From: Chiloscyllium plagiosum
Lineage: Eukaryota
Direction: 5' to 3'
DNA length: 64,000 nt
Assembly (NCBI RefSeq): GCF_004010195.1
Contig: NC_057735.1
Span: forward strand, 17,766,865-17,830,864
Shown one piece after another: positions 7,136 to 62,272 of the stretch. A model generated the notes under the pieces. That model was not told the origin of the DNA and did no database searches. It was given only the letters and a program-made list of their open reading frames with translations. Position numbers and translations under genes: made by a program. Numbering within the stretch: the first letter of the stretch is position 1; the number at the start of each line of letters is the position of its first letter.

Positions 7136-7171
7136 TGTAAACTCAGTAATGGATGCTATTGGGACTGAAGA

Positions 7172-22469: not shown

Positions 22470-22542
22470 ATGAACATGAATATTATTTTGAAGTATGAGA
22501 CAATCTTTTTGTTTCTCTTTTGGTCCTCTCAAGTGAACTGCA
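22470..22542 (+). CDS. Gla gene B exon 1, signal peptide MNMNIILKYETIFLFLFWSSQVNC
   Basis: Aligns with gene A/C signal peptides (ILK...LF..Q); phase-1 GTAAGT donor at 22543. Confidence 0.75.
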
Positions 22543-23699
22543 GTAAGTAATTGTAATCATAACTCAAAATATAATGAGGCGATCTCTTAAACGCGGGACT
22601 TCTTTTACAAATCTCGCTAGTAATTGATTAATTAAAAGTAGTGCTGATATTAATTTTTGGTGTTGCTGATATGGCATATGACAAATATAACTATAACGTT
22701 CAGTTAACTTATGCAGTTCTAAAATGACTGTGCAGTAAGCAGGTCTAAAGCTGAAGGAAAATTATACTTCACATTTCACACAGACAGTCAATGTAGTTAG
22801 GTGACTAACATGGGACGATCGTATGAGAAAGAAAATAGTAAAGAGGAAAGTAATTCGTGAAAATAAGGTTTCCAGTCATTCTGATGCTCCATTTTGAACT
22901 ATACAAGATGTGACATTCACACGTTTTCCATTTTCTTTACCTAATTGGAGAAGTAATCTCATATCACTCTCAGTTATACCGGTTCTGGTTATATAGAGAC
23001 AAAATAGTGTTTAAAAAGTTCCTAGGTCATGCAAATAATTTAATAATATCATAAATAAAGCTACTCTCCCTGATGATGTTTATTTAGAAAAGGTATTCAG
23101 CTCTATTTTTCATTATCAGTGAATGAGGAGGAATGACTTTATAATTTGGGCCTCACACCTCTCTATCTGATTGGTACTAGACACAAACTAGTATACCTCT
23201 GGGACAATACCCCAAAAGACTTGGCCATCTGCCCTGCATTTTCAGAAAAACTGAGTATCAAATGAATTGTTTAGATACTTACTGAAGACTCATTTTGCTC
23301 AACGGCACCTAAATAAGATTTCAAGTGACAATACTTATGCTGAAATCATAATCTGTGTCCAGGAGCATCTGGGAACTGATTGCTTTTGATGGTTCTCAGG
23401 TTTTCTGAAGTCAGAAGTGGCAACTTGTTATCTGGTGACAGCTTTGCCGTAAGTGACAGCAGTAAATGCACATTTAAATTTAGTCATGGTACAGCAGGAT
23501 TAAGTTCTCTGTTAACATTATTTTCACTGGGACTTGTTTCATACTGGCCGTTAGAGAACCTAGGGATATGGAGATAGAGCAAAATAATGGAATTGAGGAA
23601 AAATGAAGTGAACCATCATGCTAATTTGTTGTCAGTCAGGCCTGTATTCTTGTTCCTATTTCATATAATCTTATGAAGGCCTAACCATGTTAGTTACAG

Positions 23700-25140: not shown

Positions 25141-25233
25141 TCTGCAATTAAATTATTGCTAGAAACAGCAAAAGAAAGACTTTTTTCATGTGTGTTATGT
25201 GGATAAAGGTACTCTTAACCCACTATGATTTAG

Positions 25234-25394
25234 TGTTTTTGCAGAAATCACTTGCCAACACCTTCCTTTCCCGGATCCGGAGGGCTAATGACGGCCTGGA
25301 GGAACTACTACTTGATAATATGGAAAGAGAATGCTGTGAAGAAAAGTGTTTGCCAGAAGAGACTCAAGAGGTTTTGAGAAATTCTCCAAAACCT
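25234..25394 (+). CDS. Gla gene B exon 2, propeptide+Gla (M)FLQKSLANTFLSRIRR/ANDGLEELLLDNMERECCEEKCLPEETQEVLRNSPKP
   Basis: TAG acceptor; RIRR/AN furin site; Glu at 6,7,14,16,19,20,25,26,29; phase-0 GTAAGG donor. Confidence 0.9.
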
Positions 25395-27556
25395 GTAAGG
25401 ATTGCATCTAAAGCAATTCAATCTTAACAGCTGCTCAGCAGTATGAGTGGTCTAAAATGGGATTAGTATTTGACACTTAACACCCATTTCATTGGCAACA
25501 TGTAGAATATTATTGCCCAAACTAGCTGCTCAAAAGCATAATTACAGGTTACTTCCAGTGAAGCCTAGCCTACTTAACATGATTAATAACTGTAACTTTT
25601 GTAATGTAGCTCATCCTAATTCCATATTATAGCATCTAATAGTTCCTCATGACCCTCTTCTTCACTCCCACACCCTCTCATAATTGACACTAACAGAGTG
25701 TTCACCTGATCTGACTCAGGAACCTAGTTACCTGACAGTTGTTGTGCCAATAACAACAACCTGACTTGCCTTTGTATTTGACATACTTCTCAAAATTCAG
25801 GCTGAAATAACTCCACAGATGTTGGTATCTTCATCACCAAGTCACCCTTTATTTAACATGTGGAAAGTCCTTGTCCCTGGCACAGCCTTATCAGAGTCAG
25901 TACCCAGAGTAAGAGAATTCTGACCCTCTTCTTTTCATCTGTCAGCCAGAGCTCCCTGATTGGACAAAATCAATAGTCCCAATCAAGGAACTCATATTCT
26001 ATGAGGTCCAGCTGGCCGGCCTCATTACAATCACTACACAGGCCCAATTAATTTAGAAGATTCAGGACCACGTCCAGGTAGAAAGGGGAAGACAGGTTAT
26101 GATTTGACATTCTCAGAGTGTTCAAATAGACTGCACTCCTAAATTTCAAGACCATAAACAAAGGAAGATGAAGATTCCAGTAAACATGCCAATATTTCTA
26201 TTTATAAAGTCAGAGTCTGAAAGTTACTATTGACAATATTAATAAACAAATGTGTGATATGTTAGCATAAATCCCTTTCTATTGCGTTTCAACCGAGGCA
26301 TCAACCATTTAAAGCAAACTGATTATACTAAATTAAAGAAGTCCGCAGAGAAACTTTAAATGTTAATATACATGTTAATGTCTTATTGTAATATTTGTAG
26401 CTTAGTTACATGACGATTCAGGAACATAAACATAACTGCAATCTTACTGTCATCATATTTATTTATGTTTTAAATGTTTTTAATATATTTCGTAATGGTG
26501 GGCATCTTTAATTGACATTTGCTCCTAATAACCCAGTGCTGGACCACTTATCTCTTACAACAGATCCATATGTGGAGTTGATTCATAAGAGAGGCTTACA
26601 GTATATATGAGGACAATTTTATAAATTCAATGAAATATGTACACCACTCACACTTATTGAGAAATTCTAGAGCAAGAGTTGTTGATGGTGAAACCATTGG
26701 GCTGAATTTTCTCAGTCTCTTAATGATGAGGCAATGATGGGAAGTTTGGGAAATACAACAAAAGTGAAAAGTTGAAATTCTGGATGTTGAGAAAACAGGG
26801 TCCAATTTTTCACTTGAGGTTTCATAGCAAGTTGAGAATCTTGCTCATGAAAAGTGAGGGGCCTATTGAATGCATTAATGAGCATTAACATTTAATTATT
26901 TTCTAATCTCATCTCATTTTTGTGCAAGTTGTTTTTTCCCAGTTGTCAGGGAGAAGTTAGACAGTGCCACTTCCCAATTTAAAGGACCTGGTAGCTGCAG
27001 TTCACAAGCACCTTCACCTTCTTGGCAGCATTCCCTCAGCATGCTCCTTGGGCAGCAACCATCTGAACCTTCTGTCCATGGAAGTCAGCAATCACTTCAT
27101 CACTTCACCATGGCACAGCCTTAACTAATTTACAATATGGTTCAGCGTTTAAATACAGCACTTTGGAGTTCACTGACAAATTTTGCTCCAATGCAGCTGC
27201 CATGTCATTTTGTGCACAGGGAATAGGTTGCGTACTATGGCTAATAAATTGCTTTCTGAAGCAATTGTGCATACTTTATGAGGTGATCAGTGTAAAATTG
27301 AGTGAGAAAAGTTTCTATGCCTCACAAAGAATGACTCTCTGTGAAATGCCCCAAAATTGATACTTAGCCAAATCTAACATTGAAGGGATCTGTACTGTGC
27401 TGTAATGGAAATTCAGCCTATTGTTTTCAAGTATGTGGAATTAATCAGTAGGACTCCAAAATAATACTGCTCATTTGTAACATCCCTCCTATTATTGTTG
27501 AGAAGCATGTGTCTATTTGTGTGCTGCACGAACTAAGCTAAGATTTGTTTTTGCAG

Positions 27557-27581
27557 GAACAAACTTGGATTACGCCCAATG
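27557..27581 (+). CDS. Gla gene B exon 3, degenerate aromatic stack EQTWITPN
   Basis: ttgtttttgcag acceptor; 25 nt as in F7/F9/F10 exon; Trp retained; GTATGT donor. Confidence 0.75.
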
Positions 27582-28947
27582 GTATGTTTTTTTAAAAAAT
27601 CAATTTGATCCATAGATTATGCTTTGAGTACGTTTATTATTGTTTATCCTGCACTAAAACAACAGGCAGTGAAAATTTATACAAACACATTTAAATATTC
27701 ATATTTAGTACTAACTGTCACACTGCTTGAATTTAACCCATTTGGAATTATTAGTGAGGAGACAATTAATGCAGTTATGGATTGGCACCAAAAGCCGGCC
27801 ATGTCCATATTCGATGAAAGAATCATGAACTAGTGCTGGATTTCAAAATGGCTTGTAAAATGAGGAGATGATCTCTGATGCCTTTCTATAGGTTATGGTA
27901 CATAAGACAGCCTGAATATGGACAGAGCAAGAACAAATTCAATAGCATAACTAAGAGGTTTGATGGGATGTTAGTGGCAGAATGTGTTAGCAAAGACATG
28001 GCAGAAAACATATCCATAAACTCGCCAGTCAGGACCGGTCAATTCTGGCCCTTCATGCCCATCTCTTGAAGTGTAACTGCACTTGCAGGACCTTAAAATT
28101 AAGGCCACAACAACCCATTACAAGCATCTTATAAATATTGACAGAGAAGCATGTGATCTTGCTGATATTCAAAATCACAAATTAGCATTCCGTTGATCCC
28201 TAAAATGACTTAGGTTTACAAATTGCACTTCCAAGTACATGTAGCAGATATTACTTACATATTGGAATGGGATCACCTTTTTTTGCTGTTGCTGTGTAAA
28301 AATAATGGAACTTTCTTCCTATCAACGCTGTGGATACACCTGCCTGCCAACCATGCATGGAGTATAGTCAGATAAGAAGGTAAGTGATTATCACATCTTC
28401 AAAGACAATTAGCGATGAGCAATAAATGCTGGAAAAGCCAGTGATATCCACATTCCACAATCAAATAAATAAAATAAATCCTGTCAGAGAACCTTTTCTG
28501 AAATTCCTTCCTTCCAACTGAACAAAATATGCTTTGTCCATCCGCATTAAAGATATAATGATGGATCATGGGGAAATGTTCCTTGCTATGTTGCAGATAT
28601 AGTGTTTATATTTCTCATAGTTTAATGAGTCTCTCCAGGTTGAAAATTGTTTGTTTGTAATTCTTTCACCAGAATGTAATATGAGCAAAGTGCAAAGTAT
28701 TGGAAAGTGGAGCTTCTAAAAGATTATTATTAATCATATGTGGAGTTAAAGAGGGTTGGTTGCCATTTTATACAGATACAGCCTGTAATTGTCATATTTT
28801 GCATGACATCTTATACTAACCCCAATTTGCATTGCATGAATAGTGTAATGATTTCTATGTTTTTTACTTACTGTAAAGATAAACTTGTTAAAAAAATTTA
28901 GCTGAAATTACAATGTCCCTTTAACACAAAGTGTCTTTTTTGTACAG

Positions 28948-28983
28948 GCAGCGTTAGACCTCTCCCCTGTTTTCTGAGCCAAT
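28948..28983 (+). CDS. Gla gene B probable exon 4, linker (G)SVRPLPCFLSQ
   Basis: cttttttgtacag acceptor; GTAAGT donor; 36 nt, phase 1-1. Confidence 0.55.
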
Positions 28984-29039
28984 GTAAGTTTGTAATACAA
29001 TTCACAAATCACATAAATCTATGATTGAAAAACACGATT

Positions 29040-30365
29040 CAGATTGCTGGGCCTCTTGCTGAGATATTTGATAGTCACAGCTGAGGTGCCGGAAGACTGA
29101 AGGTTGGCAAACGTGGTGTCACTGTTTAAGAAGGGTGGTAAAATCAAGCCAGGGAACTATAGACCAGTGAGCCTGATCTCGGTGGTGGGCAAGTTGTTGG
29201 AGGGAATCCTGACGGACAGGATGTACATGTATTTGGAAAGGCAAGGACTGATTCGGGATAGTCAACATGGCTTTGTGTGTGGGAAATCATGTCTCACAAA
29301 CTTGATTGAGTTTTTTGAAGAAGTAACAAAGAAGATTGATGAGGGCAGAGCAGTAGATGTGATCCATATGGACTTCAGTAAGGCGTTTGACTCGGTTCCC
29401 CATGGGAGACTGATTAGCAAGGTTAGATCTCATGGAATACAAGGAGAACTAGCCACTTGGATACAGAACTGGCTCAAAGATAGAAGACAGAGGGTGGGGG
29501 TGGAGGATTGTTCTTCAGACTGGAGGCCTGTGACCAGTGGAGTGCCACAAGGATCGGTGCTGGGCCCTCTAATTTTTGTCATTTACATAAATGATTTGGA
29601 TGTGAGCATAAGAGGTACAGTTAGTAAGATTGCAGATGACACCAAAGTTGGAGGTGTAGTGGACAGCAAAGAGGGTTACCTCAGATTACAGCAGGATCTG
29701 GACCATGGGCCAATGGGCTGAGAAGTGGCAGATTGAGTTTAATTCAGATAAATGCAAGGTGCTGCATCTTGGGAAAGAAAATCTTAGCAGGACTTATACA
29801 CTTAATGGTAAGGTCCTAGAGAGTGTTGCTGAACAAAGAGACCTTGCAGGTTCATAGCTCCTTGAAAGTGGAGTTGCAGGTAGATAGGATAGTGAAGAAG
29901 GCATTTGGTATGCATTCATTTATTAGTCAGAGTATTGAGTACAGGAGTTGGGAGGTCATGTTGCAGCTGCACAGAACATTAGTTCAGGCACTGTTGGAAT
30001 ATTGCGAGCAATTCTTGTCTCCTTCCTATTGGAAGGAGGTTGTGAAACTTGAAAGGGTTCAGAAAAGATTTACAAGGGTGTTGCCAGATAGGTTTAGGGT
30101 GAGAGGGGAAAGATATAAAAGAGACCTAAGGGGCAACTGTTTCACACAGAGGGTGGTACGTGTATGGAATGAGCTGCCAGAGGATGTGGTGGAAGCTGGT
30201 GCAATTGCAACATTTAAGAGGCATTTGGATGGGTATATTAAATGGGAAGGGTTTGGATGGATATGGGCCGGATGCTGGCAGGTGGGACTAGGTTGGGTTG
30301 GGATATCTGGTCGGCATGGACCGAAGGGTCTGTTTCCATGCTGTACATCTCTATGACTCTATGAC
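29040..30365 (+). mobile_element. CR1 LINE (HER1-like) RT, 5'-truncated
   Basis: [37 protein letters not shown] motifs; (ctatga)n tail. Confidence 0.92.
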
Positions 30366-31719
30366 TAAATGGAATTGTTGATTTTTCTTGGAAGTAAGAT
30401 AAACACAATAGCTGAGTAACATAAATATCATAAATATCATTATGGTACAAAAGCACTGTAATGAAATAATTTGAGTAGTTATGATAGATTACCTACTACT
30501 TTTCAGGGATATTGGCCCTAAAATATAGCCACAAAGCAGGAAGCAAACCTGGCTGACAGATCTATTAGCCAGAAAACGTGTTTCTCATGAGGGTGGATAC
30601 AATTTAAGTTTTTGTCAAATTAATTTGCCAGCTGAATTAGGAGCTGTTGGGTGGAGGGGTGGGGAGGAAGAGGAGATGGGGACGGCTAGGGATTGGAGTG
30701 AACATGAGTCAGATGTGATGCTAGGGGTGAAGTCAAACATCAAAAGGGATAGGAGTTGAAAATCTTGGAAGGCGAGGTCAGTGGTGGAGGTGAATGGGGA
30801 GGGGGTAACATCACCAATTCAATTATATGGGGCAAGGAGCCCAACAACTAGATACTGGAAGGGTCCCAACCCTGTCTTTAAATGTGAATGCACTAATCAC
30901 GTAGGAGATGAGCTTGGAACCCAGTTAGTGATACCAAGTTTGGCCAGGAGCTGCCAGCAATGCACAAGCAACAAAGGCAAATGGCAACAATGTTAGGACC
31001 TGCTTTTGCCTTGCAAAGGAGAGAAGACTGCTCTTCTCTGAGGGCTAGCAGCCTCATTAAGAATAAAGCTGACCAAAAGCCAAATATAAGGTCAAACACA
31101 TGAAATGGTGCCCGATCTTACAGCTTCTGAAGATCTCTAAAATTAAAAAAATAGATTATTTTCTTCTGCCTTTGAACAGAAACGATGTGCACTAATGTTC
31201 ATTAGTCTATACAGATTCAGCAGATTCAAATTTGAGTACTTGCTTCTGGCCTACCTGACCTGTTAAGAAGTGCCTCAGGGAGCTTAGTGGGCTGTTAACT
31301 GGAGGCAAATTGCTTCCCCATTGCCCTCCCACCTCCTGTCCTCCCATTGAAAATTGTATTGTGCTTCAGAAGAGGTAACATCCAGTGTCACACTCCAGGA
31401 ACTTAATTTTCAAATTATGCATCCCCTTGACCTTCAGCTTCACTGGTAGTTGAAAACCCTGTGACATTTCATCTAGGAATCATTGAGAAGATGGGAATTT
31501 AATTTTAATTTTCTGGCAGTGATACTGCTGACACCTCCAGCTGATATTCAGCTGATTCAAAATAGCGTTGAGTTCAAGCTCAGGACTTACCTGGGTTACC
31601 GTCCCTCCTGTGGGGCTAATTATTTGCGCTGCTATTTCAGAACACATTCTCTATGTCTTGTTGGTCTGTCTGGAGAGCACATGGTACATTTCACAGTCCA
31701 AAGACTCTAACAGAGTGAA

Positions 31720-32440
31720 GTGCAGTGGGATTTGTGAGAGCATTCTTGTGCATGAAACAAGAAAAGTTAGCATGAGATGTAGCAAGTAATTAAGAAGGCA
31801 AGTGGAATTTTGACTTTTATTGTTGGGGTGGGGTGGTTTGCATTTTAAAATAAAACTGTACAAAATGTTGGTGAGGTCCCATTGGAACATTGCGTACAGC
31901 TTTGGTCCCCGTATTTTAGAAAGGATATATTGGCTTTGAAGGCAGTTCAAAACAGATTCACAAGGCTGATTCCTTGGATGGAAGGGTTGACTTATCAAGA
32001 ATGGATAAACAGGTTAGGCCTTTATTCATTAGACTTTAGAAGAAGGAGGGGTGATTTATGGAAACATACAAGATTCTGCAGCAGTTTGACAAGGTAGATG
32101 TTGAGAAGATGTCTTCACTAGTGTTACATAGTTATTAAATAAGGGGACACTCATTTAAAGCAGAGATGCAAAGGGATTCCTTCTTCCAGAAGTGAATGCC
32201 TTGAATTCTTTACCCCAAAGACCTGTGGAACCAAGAAAACTGAAATTGTTTAAATGCGATGTGTATGTATTTAATATGTTTAGATATATTCCCAATTTGG
32301 ATTTAGTGGGAAGTTGAGGGTTATGAGGAAATGGCACAAAAGAGTGGTTGAAGTCTGAGGCAAATCAGCAAATGATCTTATAGAATGGTGGGACAGGCTT
32401 GAGGCACCAAATAGCTACTCCAGCTCTTACTTCTTATAAT
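31720..32440 (+). mobile_element. Degenerate CR1 3' fragment
   Basis: EHCVQLWSPYFRKDI, RFTRLIP motifs. Confidence 0.8.
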
Positions 32441-32727
32441 CTTATTTCAAGAGACATTTACTTCTTATTCCATCTGCCTTTGTTTATTGTTTGTGAGTTA
32501 ACTTGGAAATATCCTCAAATTTTAACTATTCAAGCACTATCCTGATGATAATTGTAAATAAATGAATTTTTACAAGCAGAAAACAATATTGCCTTGTCAT
32601 GGAATATGTTATAAGAAACACAATCACAATTTTAATTTAAACATTGTGAACTTGAATTAGCTTAATACATATTCTAATCCTGCATTAAAATGGCATTGTT
32701 GTTTAAACTCTTCTTTCTTGTTCATAG

Positions 32728-32912
32728 CACGCTGTGCAAAGGACAATCTGAAAGAGGTCTATTCCATAGGAAAGAAAATCTTTGAAAAACAAAAGGAAGT
32801 TGTCTATCTTCATCAGCAACTGATCCATCGCAAGTCGTACATTTTGTACCGGATGAGCAATCTATTTCAAAGCATAGAACGTTTGGTTTGGTTGATATCA
32901 GATCAGCTTTAA
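32728..32912 (+). CDS. Gla gene B terminal exon, coiled coil (S)RCAKDNLKEVYSIGKKIFEKQKEVVYLHQQLIHRKSYILYRMSNLFQSIERLVWLISDQL*
   Basis: ttctttcttgttcatag acceptor, phase 1; heptads align without gaps to gene A exon 4; AATAAA at 33007-33012. Confidence 0.72.
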
Positions 32913-41711: not shown

Positions 41712-41725
41712 GGTTACTTATTAAG
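41712..41725 (+). promoter_or_regulatory. HNF1-like site in gene C promoter
   Basis: GGTTACTTATTAAG in a block shared with 2740-2775. Confidence 0.5.
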
Positions 41726-41860: not shown

Positions 41861-41924
41861 ATGACAGTAATTTTGAGCTACGGGATAATATCATTGCTTC
41901 TCTTTGGCTGTCAAGCAAATGACT
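41861..41924 (+). CDS. Gla gene C exon 1, signal peptide MTVILSYGIISLLLFGCQAND
   Basis: aaaATGa start; hydrophobic core; phase-1 GTAAGT donor. Confidence 0.82.
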
Positions 41925-42828
41925 GTAAGTATCAATGTTTACCACAGTATCAATGTTTCTCAGGATAATTCTTCACAGAGTCTGATTTTAGACATAGACC
42001 CCTTGTTCCCTCCGTTGCTCCCATATACAGTGCTGAGTTAGTCCCTGTCTGACAATATGTTGATGATCTGATTTGTTCTCTACCACTTTGACTTTTGTAT
42101 CCACTGCCCACTGACTGTCGGTGATTGCCACACTCAATTTAATATGTTCAGTTATAGCCGCCTAGTCTGTGACTTTTTATTTCATATTTTGTTGTATGTT
42201 AAGGGTTTTTCCACAGGGTGTGGATTTTTCACTTTAACGTATTAATCTTTTTTACAAACTAAGTGCTTATTTTCTACAGATGGACTGGAATAAACAACCC
42301 TCAGGTCTTCATTCTCAATCATGAATTATCTGTTTCTCCTCTTCGTACCATCCCTTCAGACACAGTTGAGATCAAGGAATGTGATCATAATACTGTTTCT
42401 TAAAAAATAAATTTTTGTGTAAGTGCATTTACGTTTTGTGTAAAAACATTAATGAATACAAAATATTCATACACCTTTTGCTGGTTTTATGTGGCATGAT
42501 AGTACTGATATTTTGAGTGGTTTCCATTAAGGTAATTGGATTATGACATTTAGATTGGAAAAATGGCAGTTTTAATGCTATCCACTGGGTGTAAACTGGA
42601 GTGATATGTAGTTAAAATATCCCTGATTATTTATCCATACTAGAGCTAGTCACAATTTTGACTCAAGCTTCAGAAAGGGTGCTAAGCAGCCCAGACAAAT
42701 GCACAGGGTCCTCACTGACATGTTCAGACTACAGGTGAAATAAGTCATCCACCTCTGACTGTTAATTTTCTCCCTGGCCTGAGTAAGTGAGATACTGTGG
42801 CTCTTTCGCCAGGTAAATATTCAAGTGA

Positions 42829-42954
42829 AAAATGTGTTGCATAAGCCCGAAACGTCGATTCTCCTGCTCCTTGGATGCTGCCTGACCTGTTGCGCTTTTC
42901 CAGCAACACATTTTTCAGCTCTGATCTCCAGCATCTGCAGTCCTCACTTTCTCC
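42829..42954 (+). mobile_element. Penelope pLTR-derived short insertion
   Basis: 14-bp TSD aaatattcaagtga at 42815-42828 and 42955-42968. Confidence 0.8.
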
Positions 42955-43918
42955 AAATATTCAAGTGAGAAGAGGATCATGGATCAGATGAGCCCACTTT
43001 TATTTTCTTTATGAGGTTGGGAGGACTGCAAAGGTTCCTCTGGGCTCAAGGCAGGTTGAATTCTCTCTTGCTCCGGGCTCCCTCCTTCTTCTGTCCTTTG
43101 AGATCCTCCTAGAATTTCTCTTGATATATGTCCTTGACTGCCAGCAGTCAACCATGGATCACTTCCTGAACAAAAGCAGAAAATTCTGCTGTGAAGAAAA
43201 GTCATATTAAAAAGTTAACTCTGACAGATCTGCTGAGTGTCTCCAAAATTTTCTGGTTTTGTTTCAAATTTCCAGCACCTGCTTTTATATGGGCCACTAC
43301 TTTCTGCAGAAATAGGTGTGAAGTGGATCTGATAGCCTATTCATGAGTTAAAATTGCTGGGGCCTTTTTTTTCTCTAATAGCGACTTACAGTCTACCTGC
43401 TAGCAACTGCCCCCTAATTAAAACCAGAGCTTGGACGTATGAATGATTCCAGTCCATCTGCTAAGAGCAAATACTTGGTTTATTAAAGAGAAAAAAATTT
43501 TAAAGTGAAACTTCCACACCACACAGAAAAAAATTAACACACAATAAAATATGAAATAAAAGGTCACAGACCAAGCTGCTACAGTGAAACAGATTATACT
43601 GAATGTGGCAATGTTTGACAAGATTGTGGAGAAAATGCTTACTTGTGTTTTTTTTTAATTTGAAACTATCTCTGCAGCTGAGCAAGGCTAAATAATTATC
43701 AATTTACTTACTATAGGATTTAACCACATCAGGCCACAGTACTTTAGCTCAAATAATTTTTGAATGATTTTGCAAAATTCATCCCTTAATATTTTGACAA
43801 ACTTCTGTGGCTGGTCTATTTCCTGGGAAATTTAAAACCAGCAACTCCAGTAAAATTCCAGCTTAGAGTCTTGACTCTTATACTTCAAAGAAATGAAAAA
43901 ACTTGCATCTATTGAGTA

Positions 43919-44130
43919 AGGAAATGTGTTGCTGGAAAAGCGCAGCAGGTCAGGCAGCATCCAGGGAACAGGAGAATCGACGTTTCGGGCATAAGCCCTT
44001 CTTCAGGAAGAAGGGCTTATGCCCGAAACATCGATTCTCCTGTTCCCTGGATGCTGCCTGACCTGCTGCGCTTTTCCAGCAACACATTTCCAGCTCTGAT
44101 CTCCAGCATCTGCAGACCTCACTTTCTCCT
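43919..44130. mobile_element. Palindromic Penelope pLTR insertion
   Basis: 85-bp inverted arms 43920-44004 and 44007-44091; 13-bp TSD catctattgagta. Confidence 0.85.
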
Positions 44131-44271
44131 CATCTATTGAGTATGTTTTGCAACTTCAAACTATTACAACAGACACTTCACACAACAATATTATCATGGT
44201 ACAATAAAATATCACATAAAATCTACACAGGCACCTGATTTATTATTGCATTATTATTCAAAAATATGGAG

Positions 44272-44435
44272 TATTTTTACAGAAATCAGCTGCTGCACAG
44301 TTCCTGTTTCGATTTCGTAGAGCTAACAATTGGAGATTTGAGGAGCTTAAGTCTGGGAATTTGGAAAGAGAGTGTATAGAAGAAACCTGTTCCAAAGAAG
44401 AGGTCCGAGAGATTTTTGAAGATGATCAAAAAACT
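44272..44435 (+). CDS. Gla gene C exon 2, propeptide+Gla (L)[54 protein letters not shown]
   Basis: Canonical Gla domain with Glu at 7,8,15,17,20,21,26,27,30,33; RFRR furin site; GTAAGG donor; acceptor is GAG. Confidence 0.92.
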
Positions 44436-45501
44436 GTAAGGACCAAGTTTATTCTTGTCTAACTCTCACCGCTCCTTTCTCATTTTCACATAAATAATTA
44501 CATAACTGAGAAGGTCTCAGATGTCCAGCAGAGTGAGCTGGCTGCAATATGGAACTTGCTGTTTCCATTGCTTATTGTGAGTAGCTCTAGAAACTCACTG
44601 AACTATTTGTCACCACACTGCCATATGGGAATAGGTAAAGATGGCATTGACTGATAAAGAATCCTAATTTTTTTCTGTGGTGTGGGTATGCTTTGGGTTG
44701 ATTTCCTTCTCTCAGTGCTAAGTAATTACTTAGCTCAACAAGACCTCCACATCAAGTCTGAAACTATGGTCGTTCTGTGCCCTGTTGCTGCATCCTCCGA
44801 TTTATTTCTGCAGAAAACAGTTTTTATTGCACATTTTCAAATAATTTATTCTAATCTACTGAAGCCATTTCCTAAGGCAAACCACCATGAATGGTGTTGG
44901 GATCCTGCCCTACATAGAATAATAATTGATGAAAGGCACACAGGCAGAAAAGTGCTGTCTGTTTGCATTTCTGTTTGGAAAATGAAGGTCTAAATGCCCT
45001 TACCTTTTGATTTAAAATATTAAACAAGAAACATAATCATTTTCAACAAAGCAGTTAGATTTAAAATGCCAACTTCATTAAGAATTGTGAAGTGAATGTA
45101 ATTGTTGACTAATTGTTTGAGGAGAGCAGATTGTATTCTAATCTGATCAATGTCTGCTAAACTATGTACAAGAGGGCACTTAGTATGAAAACCGTAGTTG
45201 TAGCATGTAAAGATATTGCACTTTATCTCAAGTTAAAAGTAATCTTAAACAGTGCTAAAAACCACACAACACCAAGTTATAGTCCAGCAGGTTTATTCAG
45301 AAGCACTAGCTTTCAGAGTGCTGTTCCTTCATTAGGTGGTTGTGACAGATAATGCTGCTCCTTCATTGGGTGATGTTCTAAGCGCCAACCATGTAACAAT
45401 TAAATTGGAGTTGGCCTGAGACTGTGTTTAATTAGGAACAATTGATTTTTGGCCTTAAAAGTACAAAATTAATAATCTTTTCTTTATTTCCTTTCTTCAA
45501 G

Positions 45502-45526
45502 GAAATTTTCTGGGACTTCTATACAG
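45502..45526 (+). CDS. Gla gene C exon 3, aromatic stack EIFWDFYT
   Basis: 25-nt exon, FWxxY, phase 0-1, long pyrimidine tract. Confidence 0.88.
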
Positions 45527-46183
45527 GTATGCTTTCTCTAATACATCACAATTTAAAGTATTGTGCTTATTTAGACCAATCAGGTTCTGACATCATAAAA
45601 GCTATTTTCCTGACCATGTGATTAGTTTAATAAAGTAGTTCGAAGGTAGTTTCATTTCAGAAAGAAAAAAATAAAGACCTCATGATGCCTCAAAGCACTT
45701 TGCAATTGGTGGCACAGTTTTGAGAAGTATTTTACTCAGATCAGCCTCCCGAAAAATACTCCCTAAAAAAGTGATGAATGAACAGTGATGAATGGTTTTG
45801 GTAACTTTAACTAAGGATCCAATATTTACCAGTACTCCAAGGGTAATTATGCTGCCCTTTATAATAGTGTCACAGGATCTTTTGTGTTCACTTTAAACAG
45901 CATCTAGGATCTCAGTTTAATGTTGCAACCAAAAGCCATTACCCTTTACAGGTTGCATGCCCTCAGAACTGCATCAGATTGTCAGCCTAGCATTTGCGTT
46001 CAGGTATCAAGCGTGAGTGACACCAAGAATTCTCTTTTCTGTATTCTAAAGGCCCAATTGGTATTATGTGGCCTAACAAATCGAATAATATTAATGAGTG
46101 AGAGTCAATGTCCTGAAACAAACAAAAAACACAGAATGTGTTGGAGATATTCAGCAAGCCTGGCTGCACCTGTTGGGGAGAGA

Positions 46184-46214
<31 letters not shown>

Positions 46215-46824
46215 CGAGAGAGAAACAGAGTTAATGGGCTGATTTTTTTACCAAAAATTGTTTAAGACCATAAGATGATAAGACACAAGAGCAGAAATAG
46301 ACCATTCAGGCCATCGAGTCTCTCCGCCATTTGATCATGGCTGATATGTTTCTCAAACCCATTCTCCTGCCTTCTCCTCATAACCTTTGATCCCCTAACT
46401 AATCAAAAACTTATATACCGCTGTCTTAAATACTCTCAATGGCTTGGAATCCATGACCTTCTGCAGTAATGAGTTTCAGAGATTAATCACCCTCTGGATG
46501 AAGTGTAAATTTTGTGACTTCAGGTCATTCTGCTATAATGCACGTTTCGTTAATGCGAATTCGCTATAATATGATTGACGAATTGGAGACACTGTTTCCA
46601 AAGTGCAAACTTTTAAAGCGTGTACTGGCTATAATGCGTTTCTGGCCCCATTAGTTTAAATGGTGCTGCTATTATGCAAATTTTTAATAACACGGGATTG
46701 CATCAGACCAGAACTGCCGCATTATAGCAGAACCGACTGAATCAGGAAGGATTTCTATTTGCAAGCTCCAGGAGATTATCTCACACAATTGTCTGCAATG
46801 GCTTCCTCACTCGTGTGGAAGTCA

Positions 46825-48055
46825 ACTAGGAGAAAGGTGAGGACTGCACATGCTGGAGATCACAGTCGAGCATGTGGTGCTGGAAAAGCACAGCAGGTCA
46901 GCCAGCACCGAGGAGTAGGAGAATTATCGTTTCAGGTATAAACCCTTCATCAGGAATGAGGCTAGTGGGTCAGGGGGCTGAGAGATAAATGGGAGGGAGG
47001 TGGTGGGGCTGGGGGAAAGGTAGCTGAGAATGCAATAGGTAGATGAAGATGACAGGTCAGAAAGGAGGGTGGAGATGTGGTCTCTACATTGGGGAGACAG
47101 GATGCCAACTTGTGGATCATTTCAGAGAACATATCTGGGAAACCTGCACCAACCAATCTCACAGTCACGTGGCTGAACATTTCAATTCCTCCTCTCACTC
47201 CACCAAGGACATGCAGGTCCTGGGCCTCTTCCATCTCCAAACGCTACCCACACGATGCCTGGAGGAAGAACGCCTCATTTTCTACCTTGAGACCCTGCAA
47301 CCACGTGGGATTAATGAGGATTTCACCAGTTTCCTCATTTCCCCTCCGCCCCCACCTTATCAGAGTCCAAAGCCTCCAACTCAGCATCACCCTCATTCCC
47401 ATCAAATCATCTTCCGCCACTTCCACCACCTACAAACAGACCCCACCACAAGAGATATATTTCCCTCCTCAGCCCTACTAGCGTTTTGGAGAGATCATTC
47501 CCTCCGCGACTCCCCTGTCAGGCTAACGTCTCCACCAGCCCTCAACTCATTCCGTGCACCTTACCCTGCTACCACAGGAAGTGCAAACACTGCACCCACA
47601 CCTGCCCTTCACCTCCGTCCCAGGCACTAAAGGATCCTTCCACATTCAACATAAATTTACCTGTACCTCCACCAATGTCATCTATTGCATCCTTTGGTCT
47701 CCTCTCCATTGGGGAGACAGGATGACAATGTGGGTCATTTCAGAGAACATCTCTGGGACACCCATACCAACCAACCCCATAGCCCTATGGCTGAACACTT
47801 CAACTCCCCCTCCCACTCTAACAAGGACATGCAGGTCCTGGGCTTCCTACATCGCCAAACCTAACCATGCCTGGAGGAAGAATGCCTCATCTTTCGCCCT
47901 GGGACCCTGCAACCACTCGGGATCAATGTGGATTTCACCAGTTTCCGCATTTCCCCTCCCCTTCATCCAGGCATTGGGTGGTAAGGGAGTGGCGATGGAG
48001 GAGGCCCAGGACCTGCATGTCATGAGGGAGTGGCGATGGAGGAGGCCCAGGCTTT
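46825..48055. mobile_element. Rearranged Penelope-like remnants
   Basis: Two GLYIGETG..HFREH-like GIY-YIG segments; inverted pLTR at the left end. Confidence 0.75.
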
Positions 48056-48504
48056 TTTAATGACAACTTCAGGGGTATTTTTGTTCTATTTGGGTAACAT
48101 TCAGAAAGTGTAAAAAATGCATAAGCGTTTGTCAGCACATTGAACCACATTTTAAATGCTCCTTTCATGGTTAACAAGCCTAGACATGATAATTGAACAT
48201 AGAGGCAGAGACTCTTCCTCTCGACTATATGATCTCCTAGAAGACAGACAAGAAACGATTAAGAAATAGCAGATGATGAATTACATTTTCCAACATTAAT
48301 GGTCAAATGCAGAACAGATTCAAACCAATTCCCTTACCTATTACTTTAGACTTATATCTGCTGGTATTGGCATTCAAATTTTCTACTCTACATGCAGAAA
48401 AATCTAAATAAACTGTTAGAGCAATTTCTGCTAATTCTAGAAATGCCGTGCCTTATATGATGCCAGATCAAAATAAAAACTCCAATTTAATTTCTCTTTT
48501 TCAG

Positions 48505-48618
48505 GCAGAACAATATGCGATTCATCTCCCTGTCAAAATAATGGGCGGTGTGTAGATTTGTACGGCGAATTTTATTGCAAATGTCTTGGAGGATTTAATG
48601 GAACATTCTGCGAACAAG
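48505..48618 (+). CDS. Gla gene C exon 4, EGF1 (G)RTICDSSPCQNNGRCVDLYGEFYCKCLGGFNGTFCEQ
   Basis: Six-Cys EGF; 114 nt, phase 1-1, like F7/F9/F10 EGF1; strong acceptor. Confidence 0.92.
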
Positions 48619-48943
48619 GTCTGAGAATTTTTGTCACAAAATTCATTCTTTCTCTTGAGATTCCCATAGATTCTCCAATCCCAATGGTGTCACTAGTTGT
48701 GTACTGTGAGGGCAAGGTGTTCTTACATTATCTATCATAATCTATTCACATAAATTGAGTGCAATAATAATTGGTGCAGACCTTTCTTTAGTACTTTTTC
48801 TAGGTCTTATACTGAATCAGGTGATAATAACAACTGTGGTATGGGTAATGATCACTAGGAACAGGTTTTCCTGTAGCAACCCAAACCAGGACCAAAGATA
48901 GAAGATCACAGCAAGATTGATTAAATGACTGATAGAATATGAT

Positions 48944-49163
48944 GAGGTAAAAACAATGACTGCAGATGCTGGAAACCAGATTCTGGATTAGTGGTGCTGG
49001 AAGAGCACAGCAGTTCAGGCAGCATCCGAAGAGCAGTAAAATCGACGTTTTGGACAAAAGCCCTTAAATTCCTGATGAAGGGCTTTTGCCCGAAACGTCT
49101 ATTTTACTGCTCCTCAGATGCTGCCTGAACTGCTGTGCTCTTCCAGCACCACTAATCCAGAAT
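48944..49163. mobile_element. Palindromic Penelope pLTR insertion
   Basis: Inverted arms; near-TSD gatagaa(t/c)atgat. Confidence 0.75.
49068..49103 (+). ncRNA. Minimal hammerhead ribozyme core
   Basis: CTGATGA-a-GGGC tttt GCCC-GAAAC-GTC. Confidence 0.65.
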
Positions 49164-52100
49164 GATAGAACATGATTCTCAATTTGCTGTAATGCCACAC
49201 CATTGACCACAGCCCCACAACCTACAACTCCCATTGCAGATCTTCCTGTTTGTGGCACAAGCTCCACTGCCCAGCTTTGTGAGCATCCCTCCATTGGAAT
49301 ACACTAAGACCTGATGAAGAGAAACATAAGAGCAGAAAGGCTTGAAAAATTCTGTCTCCCAAAAATTACGAAGCCCTGGCTGGGCTTGCAATGAAACCAA
49401 GTGCTTGTCAAGTGAAATAGAGAAAGTTCCCTGAAATCCTGCAATAGTATTGTGATAGCAGAGACTTGATAAAAGTGTTCTCAAAACTTGCTAACAATTG
49501 TTCTTTCTTACTTGTTCATGGGATGTGGATGTTACTAGCTAGGCCAGCATTTAGTGCCCAGACCTAATTGCCCTAGAAAAGGTGGTGGAGACCCACCATT
49601 TATTCATTCATTCACTGGATGAGGATGTCACTTGATTGGTCAACATTTATTGCCCATCCCAGACAGCAGTTAAGAGTCAACCACATAGCTGTGGGTCTGG
49701 AGTCATATGCAGTCCAGGCCAGGTAAGAATGGCAGTTTCCTTCCCTAAAGGACATTTCTGAACCAGATGTGTTTTTCTCAACAATACAATAGTTTCATAT
49801 TTTTATTGATAACAAATTCCACCATATGTCAATGGCAGGATTTGAACTCGGATCCCAGAACATTACCTGGATTTTTGGATTAACAATCCAGCAATAATGC
49901 CACTAGGCTATTGCCTCCCCAATTTTATCATCCAATGCAGGGTAGGGACACCCACAATGCTGTTAGGAAGGGACTTCCATGATTTTGATCCAATTACAGT
50001 GAAGGAATTGTGATATATTTCAGAATGGCGTGTTTCTTGGATGGAAACCTGTAGGTGGTGGAGTCCCCATAATCTGCTGCCACTTTCAGGTGGTAGAGGT
50101 CATGGGTTTGTAATGTGCTATTGAAGGAGCATTGGTGAGTTCCCGTAATGCATTGCTTCCACTGCTTAGCAGTGGGTATGGATGACATGCCAATAAAGCA
50201 TGTCATTTTGTCTTGGCTTGTGTCAAGCTGCTTGAGTGTTCTTGGAGCTTCACACATTTGGCTTCACCCCATTTCCTCTTACTGTTCCTGGCAACTGAGT
50301 ACACACCAAACACAACAGAGAAAAATCTGGTCTGGTGACTTATATATATTTAATACAATTTATAACACAAAAGGGCATGACAATATCATAATGTAATTTT
50401 ACATTTATTTCAGTCATGTATTTCTTCCCAAATTGAGAATAACCACTAGATAGTTAAAAGTCAAAGCTTTGTGGCTTATTAACTACCGTGGCAGTTGGGA
50501 CAGATAACTGATTAAGTGTGCACAGCTAAGATGGATAGATAGTCTATGTAGAGCTATACGCAATGACTCAACCTTGCTAGATCAATTAAAAAACATATTT
50601 GTTATTTAACAGGCATGTCATTCATGATGCTAGATCCTATTAGCTATTCGCAGAATAGCTATTGACAGAATATTAGGATCTGGCATCTCGTAGAGGATTT
50701 GGGCTGCTTCCTTCCTAAAAAGACAATATTAAAGATGTTGTATACAGCATTCAAAACAGATAAAACTGATTGTGCCACTAGAAATGAACAAGCACAATCT
50801 GATAGCAATTACAGGGACATTGTTTCAGGGTGGCATAGATTGAGATCTAAATATTGAAGGGTAAAAGACACTTAGAAAAATGGAGAGGTTTCTTTGTTAA
50901 TTAATGTCATTATTAAAATTATAGACAGGGATGACCTAAATTTAGGAAACCAGGAAGTAGGGTCGAGTTGAGAAATGATAAAGGAAAGAGGATACTTGTG
51001 AAACAACACATAAGCTCCCAAACAGTAATTACACAGAGTATAAATACAAAAAAAAAAGTTTGTCAGAAAACTGCGGTCAGTCATTGGGAATTTTAATCTG
51101 CATACACATTGGAAAACCAGATGTACAAAGATAACATACAAGAGGGTTTCATAGAATATTTTGGGGCTTATTTATTAGAACAGCACATTTGAAGCTGACC
51201 AGTAAGCAGGCTATACCAGACTTGTTAGAGGGAGAGAGAAGTGAATCTAAGACTATTATTTTAAACTTGAGTAAGAGCAATTCTGGTTGAAAGAAGAGTG
51301 AGCTAAAGTGTACTTGCAAATCAGGTTAATGGTTAGATCAAAAGAGATGCAGTGGCAGACATTTAAAGGGATATTTTGTTTTATACATTGTGTAACAAAC
51401 AAGGCATTCACTTTTAATAACTGGGCAGCCTCTGGTGCATATTTGCTCCACAACACTGACAAGGACATTTAGTGTCTGGTGCCTTCCCAGTCAATGTGTT
51501 GGTTTACTGAAAGGATTTTGCTGATCTAAGGTTCATCTTCCCCTCTTAACATTCATCTGTTCTGCTTCCTGACATCTCTGAAGTAAAATCTTCTTTGGAG
51601 TGTAATAAATCTGATAAAGAATCATCAGGAAATCTGACAACAATTCTGTCCTTTATGAATTCTGATTTTAAATCACCAGTACATTTCTACATGTAATTAA
51701 TGATAATTAATTAAGTAATCTATGTATCTCCCTGAATGCTAAGCTATCTGATAAAATCTTGCTTTTCCAATTATTTTATTTGTTTTAAGAATAAGACAAT
51801 TGTCAAAGGCTTTTGGTACTTCTTCAAAAGAACTTGTTACTTGTTTACCACTTAGTGAATTATAACATCATTGATTATACTCCTAAATGAATATTAAAAT
51901 GTACAAACATATTCAGTTTCAGATTTAGTATCTAATTTTGAAACTGTTCTATGTTTTAAGAATTGTTTTCTCCAAAATGTCCAATTCTGTGTTCTATTTG
52001 TCCATCTCTGAAATGAATCTTTCTGGCAATTTTATTTCTGATGCCATGTATTTGTAATATGATTATTTTGTTTCCTTGCTTAAAAGGTTTTTTTTGCAGT

Positions 52101-53824
52101 GATGGTAGTGCTGCTGCTGTGTTCTGCTTTGCTACAGGTTTCCCAGCTTTTGCAGGCATATCGAAGGATTCTACTTTTCCTACATTTTCACTGGATGTTT
52201 TTTGTCTTTAATAAATGATACATATTTTCTTAACAGCTTTACTGAATTAACTCTGCTGCCTCTGGCTTTAATCCTGTATTAAACATGGTTTCATTAAGTT
52301 ACTCCCTCAAGTCATGGCTTTAATAGATGAATCCTACTTCTATTTTTATTCTGTGTTTCCTGCTTCCCATTGATTAAAACACATTTTTCTTGCCTTTAAT
52401 GTGATTTTATTGAAGGATCCCCTGTCTTTTGTTTCAACAAAATCGGCTCCCTTCCTTTATCTGTTAGACCATGGCTGCTGAGGCTTCCCATCTGCCCTTT
52501 CATCACTTTAATTCTGGCTTTGCAGTGTCCCTGGATCTCAGTTTAGGTTACTCTGAGCCCTTAATTTCTCTTGTTGTAACAGACCTCCACCACTGTCAGC
52601 GTATTGCATTAGACAGCTAAATGAAATCAGCACTGCTGCTTACCATGTTGTATATGCAGTCAAACTGAGTCTGCACCTCAGCATTGGGGAGGTTTGCTGT
52701 CACAACCCCCTTTTAAGTTTCAGGATTGGCTTACTCAAGTGTGGTTGAGGAAAACCATTTATTGGACTAACTAGATGACCTCTTGAAAAAGTAGTTTATT
52801 GCATGCTTGCAACTAGTTACTGGTTACCTTTATATGTTAGGCATTGTTACAGCAATGATAAGGAGGGCCTAGATCTCAATCCAGGCCCTAAGCTGTTTTC
52901 CCTAAAATTAAAAATGAGATCATCATATTGGGTGGTGCTTAAGGCACTCTTGGTATTATCCTTGTCAGATTCTTACATTGTTAAATAACACAAACTAGAA
53001 GGCAAAAGTTTCCAACATTGTTGTCTTCTTGGGTGATATAAACACTGACCTAGCTGAATAAATCTGACATCTAAGTTAACTGAAAATGGTGGTTCAAGCA
53101 ATTAACAATAAAATTAATAGTTACCAGCAAATTTTGTAGTTGGATACCATTCTGTTGTCTGCATTTTCTGGAGTGCAAACAGAATTGAAGAACATATAAA
53201 GACATTGTGGTCTGTACTCCAACATGGAGAACTTTCAAGATGTGCACTCTGTAAAGAGGCAGGCAAGTGTGATAAAGTCCACAAGCCTGGTTGATGACCC
53301 TTGTGTGACTCAACTCTTAAAAGGGCACTGTCTTCACATAAAATACACCAACAATAATACATAACAGATACCAATATAATACCGTTTTAGGAAATACTTT
53401 TGTGCTTATTAAATGAGGAGCACTAATGAACATTATCCATTCAGGACCTTAGTTTAGAACAGTCTAGCTAGCTACAGAATGATGTTTCCTCTATTGCACT
53501 GTAAAGCTATGTCACTGCCTCAATATAAGGGCAGCTTGTCATTTTGTCTATCTCTCACAGACTGTGGCCTTCCATATTGAAGTAGATTTTGGGTCATCTT
53601 TTAGAGGTGGCTTAGATAGAATGGCCTAAATGGCCTCCTACTCTACAGTTCTATGAAACCTACATAAAGACAGCCAGCAGAGAACCTTCTGAACATCTGG
53701 GTTTGAAATCAGATCTCAACAGGAAAAGACATTTGTCTACACCTCTATACTTTGCACTTATGCTCAAAAGACTGAAATATTATTATAAAAGCAGTAAATA
53801 ACGTGGTTTATAATTATTTTCCAG

Positions 53825-53955
53825 ATATCAATGAGTGTGAGCTCATGAACCCTTGCCCACCAGGATCAACGTGCGTAGATGGAGTCAATAACTTTACTTG
53901 TAATTGTCCACCTGAAGGGTGCAATTTATTCAGAAACGACACTGGATTTTACTAA
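53825..53955 (+). CDS. Gla gene C terminal exon, Ca-binding EGF (D)[42 protein letters not shown]
   Basis: ttttccag acceptor, phase 1; DINEC cbEGF signature; TAA at 53953-53955; AATAAA at 54145-54150. Confidence 0.88.
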
Positions 53956-54604
53956 AATTTTAATTAAATGTACAAGTTTATGGATACACAAATGGAAATG
54001 AGACATATGTTTTCTAAATGATGCAATCAATCATAACCTGTGATTACTGATCTCTTCTGATTCTGGTCATCACAGAATGATTTATAAAGCATCTACGAAA
54101 CTTGACTTTGTTGTCAATGCAACAATTTTTACACTTGTTCCAAAAATAAAGCCACATATGGAACATGTTTCAACTAAATAATCAGTACTATACTTTAAAT
54201 GTTTCTGATTTAAGTAAAATAACAAATTCAGTCTGAAATGTGACAGTTTGAAGATCTATTGTTATTCTAACATACTGTAGAAAATTATTACTTGTTGGAA
54301 AGAGAAAATTATTTCATGTCACAACTACAATTTCATGTATCTTATAAGATTGAATAAACTAAATAGGCTGCTCAATATTGCAAATTAAATTTGGTCTGTT
54401 GGAAAAATCGAGCTATGTTTCCTTTCATATAAAATGTTAAAATGTCCGTGGAAACCAACTATCGAAAGGAACCAAATTAACTGAACAGCTCAATGAAGAA
54501 ACCAAATGGACAAATTTCCAATTTATATTTAACATATGTCTAACTTACATTTCAACAATCAAACTCAGAATCAAATAAGTCAAATATAGGTGAACAGTAG
54601 AACA

Positions 54605-54985
54605 GCAATCAACCCCACCGCCCTGTGGCCCAACATTTCAACTCCCCCTCTCACTCTGCCGAGGACATGCAGGTCATGGGCCTCCTCCAGCTCCGCTCCC
54701 TCACCACCCAACACCGAGAGGAAGAACGCCTCATCTTCTGCCTCGGAACACTTCAAACCCATGGTATCAATGTGGATTTCACCAGTTTCCTCATTTCCCC
54801 TTCCCCCACCTCACCCCAGCTCTATTGTACTCTATGCTACTTTCTCCCCACCCCAACCCCCCCTCTCATTTATCCCTCCACTCTGCAGGCACCCTGCCTC
54901 TATTCCTGATGAAGGGCTTTTGCCCGAAACATCGGTTTTCCTGCTCCTCGGATGCTGCCTGACCTGCTGTGCTTTTCCAGCACCA
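54605..54985 (+). mobile_element. Penelope-like 3' remnant with hammerhead-like core
   Basis: Similar to 17950-18360; CTGATGA at 54906 followed by GGGC tttt GCCC GAAA. Confidence 0.75.
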
Positions 54986-61414: not shown

Positions 61415-62272
61415 ATGATCTTCTTATCTGCAAATAGATTTTGTCTGATTTCTACCATAATGGAGACTATACTGAAAGAACAACTGATCTTTGCTGCACA
61501 GAAGACCTTAAGAATAGGACAAAAGAAGAATTTTTCTGCATCACGTTGCTTGGGTCTCTTTGCTGAGATCCTAGCTGTAGATTCGGAATTGAAGCCTGCT
61601 TTCCTGTTTGATTACAGTCTAGCAAAATCTGAACAGGTCCAGAACTACATCCAGGAGATACAGAAGATTGGGCTTTTTTCTCAGGATTTACATATCCTCA
61701 GCATGGAAGAAAACGTACTGATAATAAACTTAAACAAAACCATAAGACATTTGGAAAGAACATTGCAAGAAAATAGGGTTCCAATCATTGATGTTTCTGC
61801 ACATAGGTCCAGCCCAAGCCTAGCTGAGACATGCGTTAGTAAACAAGTGAAGGCCCAGTTGGATCTACTTTTGAAGCATCTGAAATCCCAAGTAGTTCAA
61901 AAGGGAAGATGTGAATTAGGTGTTGTTAGTGCAAGTAAAATTTTCTCTTCAGAGTGGAATCTATGTACAATGTTTGGATTTCTCCTTGGGTTCCCAGCTG
62001 CATACTGGTTTGATTTTAGCACATCTTTTGAGAATTGTTTGAGCATGACTGAGCTTCGGGTTTTCTCTGTCTCTGCTTTTTGTCACCAAATCACTAAAAA
62101 CCTCAAGCATCAAATGTATTCGTTCAGTATTCCAGAAATCCTTTACTTGGAGTTACAGAGCATTGTAGCATGTTGGAACAGAGATCTTCAGTCAGACTTT
62201 ATCAAGCAGTCCAATTTCTCTGAACTCAATATTTCCACAGAGATCACCTGTCAGCCTGCAATTACACTTTAA
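61415..62272 (+). CDS. C1orf74: UPF0739 protein C1orf74 homolog (single coding exon; start at 61415 or at METILK, 61459)
   Basis: Recognised motifs AAQKTL, EILAV..LKPAFLFD, WNLCTMFGFLLGFP, YSFSIPE and C-terminal PAITL, as recalled from human C1orf74. Confidence 0.9.
   Translation: MIFLSANRFCLISTIMETILKEQLIFAAQKTLRIGQKKNFSASRCLGLFAEILAVDSELKPAFLFDYSLAKSEQVQNYIQEIQKIGLFSQDLHILSMEENVLIINLNKTIRHLERTLQENRVPIIDVSAHRSSPSLAETCVSKQVKAQLDLLLKHLKSQVVQKGRCELGVVSASKIFSSEWNLCTMFGFLLGFPAAYWFDFSTSFENCLSMTELRVFSVSAFCHQITKNLKHQMYSFSIPEILYLELQSIVACWNRDLQSDFIKQSNFSELNISTEITCQPAITL

Follow-up and report, generated by a model that had tools for sequence, protein, structure and literature searches.

The 64,000-nucleotide stretch of Chiloscyllium plagiosum DNA analysed here (the window) holds a gene, designated gene C, that is real, expressed and conserved, and that represents a new architecture within the Gla-domain proteins: a Gla domain and two EGF modules followed by a stop codon, with no protease domain behind them. 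The gene occupies 41861–53955 on the forward strand, from a start ATG at 41861 to a TAA stop at 53953–53955, and these limits agree to the base with those given in the preliminary description of the window. It consists of five exons, with GT..AG borders at every intron, which together form a single 498-nt frame encoding 165 amino acids. The coding part of exon 1 (41861–41924, 64 nt) specifies a predicted signal peptide and ends in a phase-1 donor; exon 2 (44272–44435, 164 nt) carries the propeptide and the Gla domain, exon 3 (45502–45526, 25 nt) the aromatic stack, exon 4 (48505–48618, 114 nt) an EGF of the clotting-factor EGF1 type, and the coding part of exon 5 (53825–53955, 131 nt) an EGF of the calcium-binding type, a 10-residue tail and the stop. 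The mature chain predicted after removal of the signal peptide and furin cleavage behind the RFRR that ends the propeptide would have 127 residues and a mass of 14.6 kDa before modification. All 14 cysteines are used by the Gla domain and the two EGFs, leaving none spare for a heavy chain. A database protein that matches most of gene C identically is entered under Chiloscyllium plagiosum.

Transcripts of gene C and the search for a protease domain

Joints were scored in transcript contigs from four public runs (15 of 303 joints listed) and in a second set of contig alignments covering gene C and its neighbour gene B (15 of 29 joints listed, four runs). None of the runs is registered as RNA, and it is the spliced joints that serve as evidence for transcription: the GT..AG joints at its exon borders show that gene C is spliced. 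The joints 44435–45502, 45526–48505 and 48618–53825 were each present in 4/4 runs, and the joint 41924–44272 in 3/4 runs in the first alignment set and 4/4 in the second. Transcript cover begins by 41834; the contig that starts there has a 29-nt loose 5′ end, for which no match was found in the window or in 53 fetched loci. At the other end, a single 809-nt contig spans exon 2 to the stop and on to 54407, right after an ATTAAA at 54384, and this defines a 3′ untranslated region at 53956–54407 on the same strand that also contains AATAAA at 54145 and 54353. Contigs from three further runs continue past the stop to 54635–54645, where a repeat starts. The poly(A) signal mentioned in the preliminary description does exist, as the AATAAA at 54145, but the spliced contig ends behind the later ATTAAA and the others extend beyond both. 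Among the joints listed, none leaves exon 5.

Database models and the sequence point to an alternative acceptor at 44283 on the same strand, 11 nt inside exon 2. Its use would lose the signal-peptide frame, and the database models beginning ‘MTK’ (P0012, P0013, P0018 and P0021, from four species) employ it; no joint at this acceptor is among the joints listed in either alignment set. The full-length frame needs the upstream AG (44272), which has a poor pyrimidine tract, and the same two-acceptor layout recurs in the paralogs A and Z described below. Within intron 1, clustered A-to-G differences occur at 42154–42196 and 43482–43503 in contigs of up to three runs, and the clusters sit in a pair of inverted repeats (42124–42291 and 43446–43612, 75% identity), a pattern suggestive of A-to-I editing in a hairpin of the pre-mRNA, or less probably of allelic differences.

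The preliminary description had seen neither an activation peptide nor protease motifs before the C1orf74 promoter, and wider searches bear this out. A trypsin profile run over 264 kb around gene C (120 kb upstream, the window and 80 kb downstream) found nothing (best E 0.24), and in five control Gla protease loci, the shark factor X locus among them having been fetched without its last exon, the same profile recovered 13 segments at E<0.01. A motif scan of the window for a protease and tblastn around the gene C locus were both negative, and the genome-wide Pfam trypsin search gave no listed match near gene C (150 of 296 candidates scored). The assembly is gap-free from −52,976 to +130,119 around gene C, and the 264 kb contain two EGF exons only. 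An unexpressed fragment, or transcripts spliced onward to a protease, the two outcomes that the preliminary description had set against its own proposal, are therefore not what we find: gene C is spliced in transcript contigs, with no listed joint out of exon 5 and no trypsin match within reach.

The genome (3.56 Gb) contains 17 Gla exons in all. Five complete Gla-EGF-EGF-protease genes lie on other contigs, and we take these, from likeness, to be F7-, F10-, F9-, protein C- and sirtilin-like. Since these complete genes exist elsewhere and relatives of gene C occur in 13 species (see below), gene C is not a broken clotting gene. The 25-nt exon 3 and 114-nt exon 4 are found in 5/5 of the shark Gla protease genes, as in gene C, so that the proposed identity with the F7/F9/F10 exon pattern holds. 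In the factor IX-like gene two near-identical copies of the catalytic-His exon stand ~190 nt apart, either a tandem duplicate or an assembly artefact. The 13 Gla exons outside the gene C cluster resemble what would be the complete set known from vertebrates, and presumably belong to prothrombin, F7, F9, F10, protein C, protein Z, sirtilin, protein S, Gas6 and four PRRG-like genes. Gene C was also considered as a sirtilin, and this was ruled out because sirtilins retain their protease domain, according to PMC6850207.

Modules, family and gene cluster

The Gla domain of gene C scores 70.5 bits with Pfam Gla (cut-off 27) and has 10/10 core Glu as well as the Cys-x4-Cys loop. Read from the sequence, the propeptide ahead of it has F-16, A-10, L-6, R-4 and R-1, matching the carboxylase-recognition consensus, and an RFRR furin-type site, and it follows a hydrophobic leader judged to be a signal peptide by eye. 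The Gla domain is thus as intact as first described; the additional E39 (in gene C's own numbering), by contrast, is no homologue of factor X Gla39, because it aligns one residue before the Glu preceding Phe-Trp of factor X, which we take to be Gla39. We set aside a resemblance between R5 and the collagen-binding position in factor IX, because just 3/11 family members have the extra residue. The top full-length structure match of the gene C protein is factor X; an AlphaFold model of the relative P0012 was of low confidence (pLDDT 56.7) and was not used for fold search.

The first EGF lacks the N-terminal calcium motif, carries a conserved N-glycan sequon (NGT) and scores 65–96 when compared with the EGF1 modules of the five shark factors. 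For the last EGF the scores are 51–86 against these EGF1 modules and 21–27, which is chance level, against the EGF2 modules of those factors. PF14670, the FXa_inhibition-type EGF2, has no match in gene C and has one in ray factor X. The last EGF starts with DINEC, its C5–C6 loop has four residues instead of eight, and consensus sites for beta-hydroxylation and O-fucose are found in 12/12 family members tested. The motif C-x-D/N-x4-F/Y-x-C, which with a D-x-N-E-C start characterizes calcium-binding EGFs of the Notch type, is likewise present in 12/12. Although Pfam EGF_CA gives no score on the shortened module, the last EGF is, on these sequence features, a calcium-binding EGF of the Notch/Crumbs type with a shortened last loop. 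Given this likeness and the scores against EGF1 and EGF2, the last exon would be either a duplicate of an EGF1 exon or a recruit from a Notch-type gene. Consequently, the second EGF does end in a stop, as the preliminary description had it, but is not the EGF2 of F7/F9/F10, and its characterization of the protein as a ‘light chain only’ fails both on these chance-level scores and on the lack of a cysteine free to link a heavy chain.

When the ortholog from zebra shark served as query, 21/21 matches at E≤1e-10 came from a shark or a ray (35 candidates, 91–293 aa), and protease-free Gla-EGF-EGF forms were found in eight shark species (one inside a longer double-Gla model) and five ray species. 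No lamprey, chimaera or bony-fish member came up in this search, which depends on shared exact words, and the family is, to judge from these sequences, likely to be restricted to elasmobranchs. It forms one clade (support 100/99), and all 10 core Glu are present in 10/11 aligned members. Mean shark–ray identity (6 shark × 5 ray sequences) is 80% in the last EGF, 70% in the Gla domain, 54% in each of the first EGF and the propeptide, and 9% in the tail; with 21/33 columns invariant, the last EGF is the most conserved part of the family. In a search for longer relatives, Notch/Crumbs repeats dominated among the best 120 of 1700 matches. The ESM Atlas holds two clusters of short chordate Gla-EGF proteins, one of 185 aa (score 0.95) and one of 121 aa (score 0.93), both probably pieces of clotting factors; 56% of the 185-aa cluster carry the EGF2 family, and a Gla-coil paralog as query gave no usable match there. 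A Hemitrygon akajei model (P0014, 288 aa) has two Gla domains and four EGFs, and its sequence suggests further internal exon duplication in rays; ray species also have several paralogs each.

Four Gla genes stand in tandem on the forward strand, in the order Z (just upstream of the window), A, B and, last, C. The cluster is flanked by an IRF-family exon 39 kb before the window, which we take to be IRF6, and by C1orf74 (DUF4504), whose reading frame (61460–62272, forward strand) lies 7.5 kb after the gene C stop, with a CpG-rich stretch at ~60.0–60.3 kb that is likely its promoter. Paralog A (2908–10322, forward strand; exons 2908–2971, 5013–5149, 5931–5961 and 10159–10322, modelled by homology) has an open frame for a signal, a shortened propeptide/Gla region and a predicted coiled coil. 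Paralog B (22476–32912, forward strand; exons 22476–22542, 25234–25394, 27557–27581, 28948–28983 and 32728–32912) has a signal, propeptide, Gla domain, short Cys linker and predicted coiled coil, and is spliced, three internal joints being present in 4/4 runs and exon 1 appearing as a loose end in three. A, Z and B all end in a predicted coiled coil in place of EGFs, and the Gla loop of each contains an additional Cys (ECC). In A, nine codons that would span the furin site and the Gla N-terminus are missing, and the N-terminus of Z is degraded. The coils of A and B are weakly alike (E 4e-4), and in the Gla exon tree that of A groups with C-type exons and that of B with the first Gla of a Heptranchias model; therefore A and Z may be hybrids that combine the front of C with the end of B. 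No copy of the A-type coil exon was found elsewhere in the genome. Gla-coil proteins of 136–182 aa are on record in six other sharks, and we know of no such architecture in other vertebrates. Two Heptranchias perlo models (P0001 and P0009; 356 and 359 aa) run from a B-type Gla through linker and coil to another propeptide, again with a furin site, and on through a C-type Gla to the two EGFs, possibly a double-Gla precursor or a fused gene model; a B-to-C read-through joint of this kind was not among the 15 of 29 joints listed from the four runs.

The promoter of gene C has an HNF1-like palindrome at 41713–41725 (forward strand), 148 nt before the ATG, with two mismatches to the consensus. An HNF1-like site occurs in aligned position in all four promoters (A, B, where it is perfect, C and Z), 127–156 nt before the ATG, against a background of 13/600 random 300-nt windows. 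The four sites are not independent evidence because they are homologous; their sharing is a hint, from sequence, that expression of the cluster may be of the liver type.

Proposed function and origin

Gla proteins owe their secretion, their carboxylation and their cleavage by furin to the leader and propeptide, and bind phosphatidylserine through the Gla domain when calcium is present. By analogy, we suggest that the gene C product, which is likely vitamin K-dependent, gamma-carboxylated and secreted into blood, may be a non-catalytic adaptor whose Gla domain would bind phosphatidylserine membranes with calcium and whose last EGF would dock a partner; this is our preferred reading, held tentatively and with somewhat less than even confidence. 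The propeptide would recruit the carboxylase, and signal-peptide and furin cleavage would release the mature chain. W4, F6 and L9 of the Gla domain would insert into anionic membranes, namely those on activated thrombocytes, at wounds or on dying cells. The pattern of conservation suggests that the first EGF may be mainly a spacer and that the last EGF, stiffened by calcium and probably O-fucosylated, may be the docking end. The most likely setting would be the tuning of clotting, or of its inhibition, on phosphatidylserine surfaces, much as protein Z brings a serpin to the membrane.

Several observations weigh against this proposal. The Gla N-terminus is degraded in P0022, P0031 and genes A and Z, so that some members would have lost membrane binding. 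The conservation of the last EGF can reflect the folding and glycosylation constraints of a small Cys-rich module instead of a partner. The trees give the gene C family no firm position. As to the setting, HNF1-like matches in the window (8 versus 4.3 expected) are not significant by themselves, and HNF1 factors act in kidney and gut too.

An unlikely alternative, among those raised in the preliminary description, is that the protein is a bare decoy anticoagulant, whose Gla-EGF part competes with clotting factors for phosphatidylserine or cofactor sites and whose last EGF has no partner. An intact Gla domain and an EGF1-type module close to that of factor X would suit such a role, and the Gla-coil paralogs, which retain the Gla end and swap the C-terminus, behave as expected of a membrane-shielding family. 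Yet it is the last EGF, and not the Gla domain, that is conserved best (80% versus 70%), and the EGF1-like module is the least conserved of the folded parts (54%). Since the Gla domain would by itself nearly suffice for a bare decoy and selection is strongest at the far end, we chose the adaptor reading. An improbable variant with the same anatomy as the adaptor, a membrane anchor with a conserved distal module, is a bridging opsonin that would join phosphatidylserine on dying cells or vesicles to a phagocyte receptor through the EGF pair, in the manner of Gas6/protein S or MFG-E8/Del-1. The EGF pair does match Del-1 weakly (E 2.8e-12); against this, the gene C sequence has neither laminin-G domains nor RGD, and Gla exons that we take to be those of protein S and Gas6 are present elsewhere in the genome.

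Concerning origin, a derivation from the front end of a factor X-like gene is likely on present sequence comparisons. A duplicate of the first four exons of such a gene would have been placed between IRF6 and C1orf74, have gained a new last exon and then have multiplied in tandem. In approximately unbiased (AU) tests on ~100 columns, rooted on the ribbon-worm Gla-EGF-repeat model P0045, grouping the family with factor X had the best likelihood (p 0.51), followed by a position outside all Gla proteases (p 0.32), with factor VII (p 0.31) and, weakest, with factor IX (p 0.06). A decidedly improbable alternative, compatible with any function, is that the family is a pre-protease relic that descends from the ancestor of the clotting factors. 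The AU test does not reject a tree that sets all proteases apart from the family, and P0045, with propeptide-Gla, EGF and calcium-binding EGF (cbEGF) repeats, shows that the order Gla-EGF-cbEGF exists outside vertebrates. Nevertheless, the best likelihood lies with factor X, every member found is elasmobranch, and we know of no such Gla gene between IRF6 and C1orf74 in human; the derived origin is favoured because the known range is so narrow. P0045 itself (Tubulanus polymorphus, 1571 aa) has a Delta/Jagged-like N-terminal part, propeptide-Gla, more than 20 EGFs and a predicted membrane helix, and by its sequence would be a Notch-ligand-like protein with a Gla domain. A broader speculation, to which we give as little credence as to the relic, is that the cluster forms an unreported vitamin K-dependent branch of sharks and rays that regulates events on phosphatidylserine surfaces and preserves the pre-protease Gla-EGF-cbEGF layout. 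One Gla anchor would here be combined with exchangeable ends that lack catalysis, be it an EGF-cbEGF pair for docking, a coiled coil that would confer multivalency, or two Gla domains in a furin-cut precursor.

It is very unlikely that gene C encodes an antibacterial protein, a stand-alone form of the activity against Gram-negative bacteria that PMC6796875 reports for human factors VII, IX and X, in their light chains, EGF1 and EGF2. The gene C product is of light-chain size, and defence genes typically show both tandem duplication and paralogs peculiar to single species, as this family does. In the same source, however, the Gla domain was inactive, yet it is strongly conserved in the gene C family; moreover, the EGF part of gene C is net acidic (4 K+R versus 10 D+E), and the slow evolution of the last EGF is at odds with pathogen-driven change. 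That the locus is a pseudogene, a truncated clotting gene or an assembly artefact is hardly credible and is already refuted at transcript level: databases do name relatives ‘coagulation factor X-like’ and paralogs A and Z are partly degraded, but gene C has an open frame and spliced transcripts, lies in assembly without gaps and has orthologs in 13 species, and the genome carries five complete Gla protease genes elsewhere.

The vertebrate Gla proteins form a short, well-studied list, and we know of no small secreted Gla-EGF-cbEGF or Gla-coiled-coil protein among them. No paper on this family, its locus or its origin was found in full-text searches of a collection with few subscription papers; the supplements of PMC13188829 contain no match to the family, and PMC9643190, in which Callorhinchus is the only cartilaginous fish, names no such protein in the passages covered. 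The gene has been predicted in public annotation under misleading names and is apparently undescribed. The names ‘coagulation factor X-like’, ‘protein Z-like’ and ‘venom prothrombin activator-like’, given despite the absence of a protease, are an annotation trap that may mislead plasma-proteome and stingray-spine studies. That the strongest constraint across sharks and rays falls on the non-clotting end suggests a new partner and a new step at phosphatidylserine surfaces, and this in a lineage on which studies of how clotting evolved depend. A natural 14.6-kDa protein with one anchor and one docking module should also be easy to express and test, and is a possible compact scaffold for targeting phosphatidylserine.

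Comparison with known systems

The EGF part of gene C resembles Notch and Crumbs repeats. The alignment of the EGF pair with repeats of Notch2 (E 7.7e-28) is roughly as good as that of the whole protein with factor X, and Crumbs repeats are the closest outside matches to the last EGF (34 bits versus 67–80 for family members); being the best of many matches to generic repeats, these do not identify a donor gene. In contrast to Notch and Crumbs, gene C has two repeats, no membrane anchor and a last loop of four residues. Ribbon-worm P0045 shares with gene C the succession of propeptide-Gla, EGF and calcium-binding EGF, but is a predicted membrane protein of far greater length, and the trees give no evidence of orthology. 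The hallmarks of PRRG1–4, a transmembrane helix and cytoplasmic PY motifs, are not found in the 165-aa gene C sequence, whose Gla exon also falls outside the group of PRRG-like exons.

Protein S and Gas6 have a Gla domain followed by EGFs, no protease, and bind phosphatidylserine, as gene C is predicted to do. They differ in having four EGFs, a loop exon ahead of these and a pair of laminin-G domains (for protein S, stated in PMC9643190), whereas gene C has two EGFs and nothing after them (Pfam: Gla and EGF only). With the Gla-EGF1-EGF2-protease factors (F7, F9, F10, protein C and sirtilin) gene C has in common the signal, the propeptide-Gla unit, the 25- and 114-nt exons and the same phases; its Gla domain is identical to that of shark factor X at 37/61 positions, and its first EGF is of the EGF1 type. 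Unlike them, it lacks the FXa_inhibition-type EGF2, the activation peptide, the linking Cys and the protease, lies at a different chromosome position, and has as its last exon a calcium-binding EGF that runs straight into a stop. Finally, protein Z has retained EGF2 and, for binding its serpin, a protease domain without activity, neither of which gene C possesses; as a non-catalytic Gla protein that serves as a membrane-bound cofactor, it nevertheless offers the model for how gene C may work.

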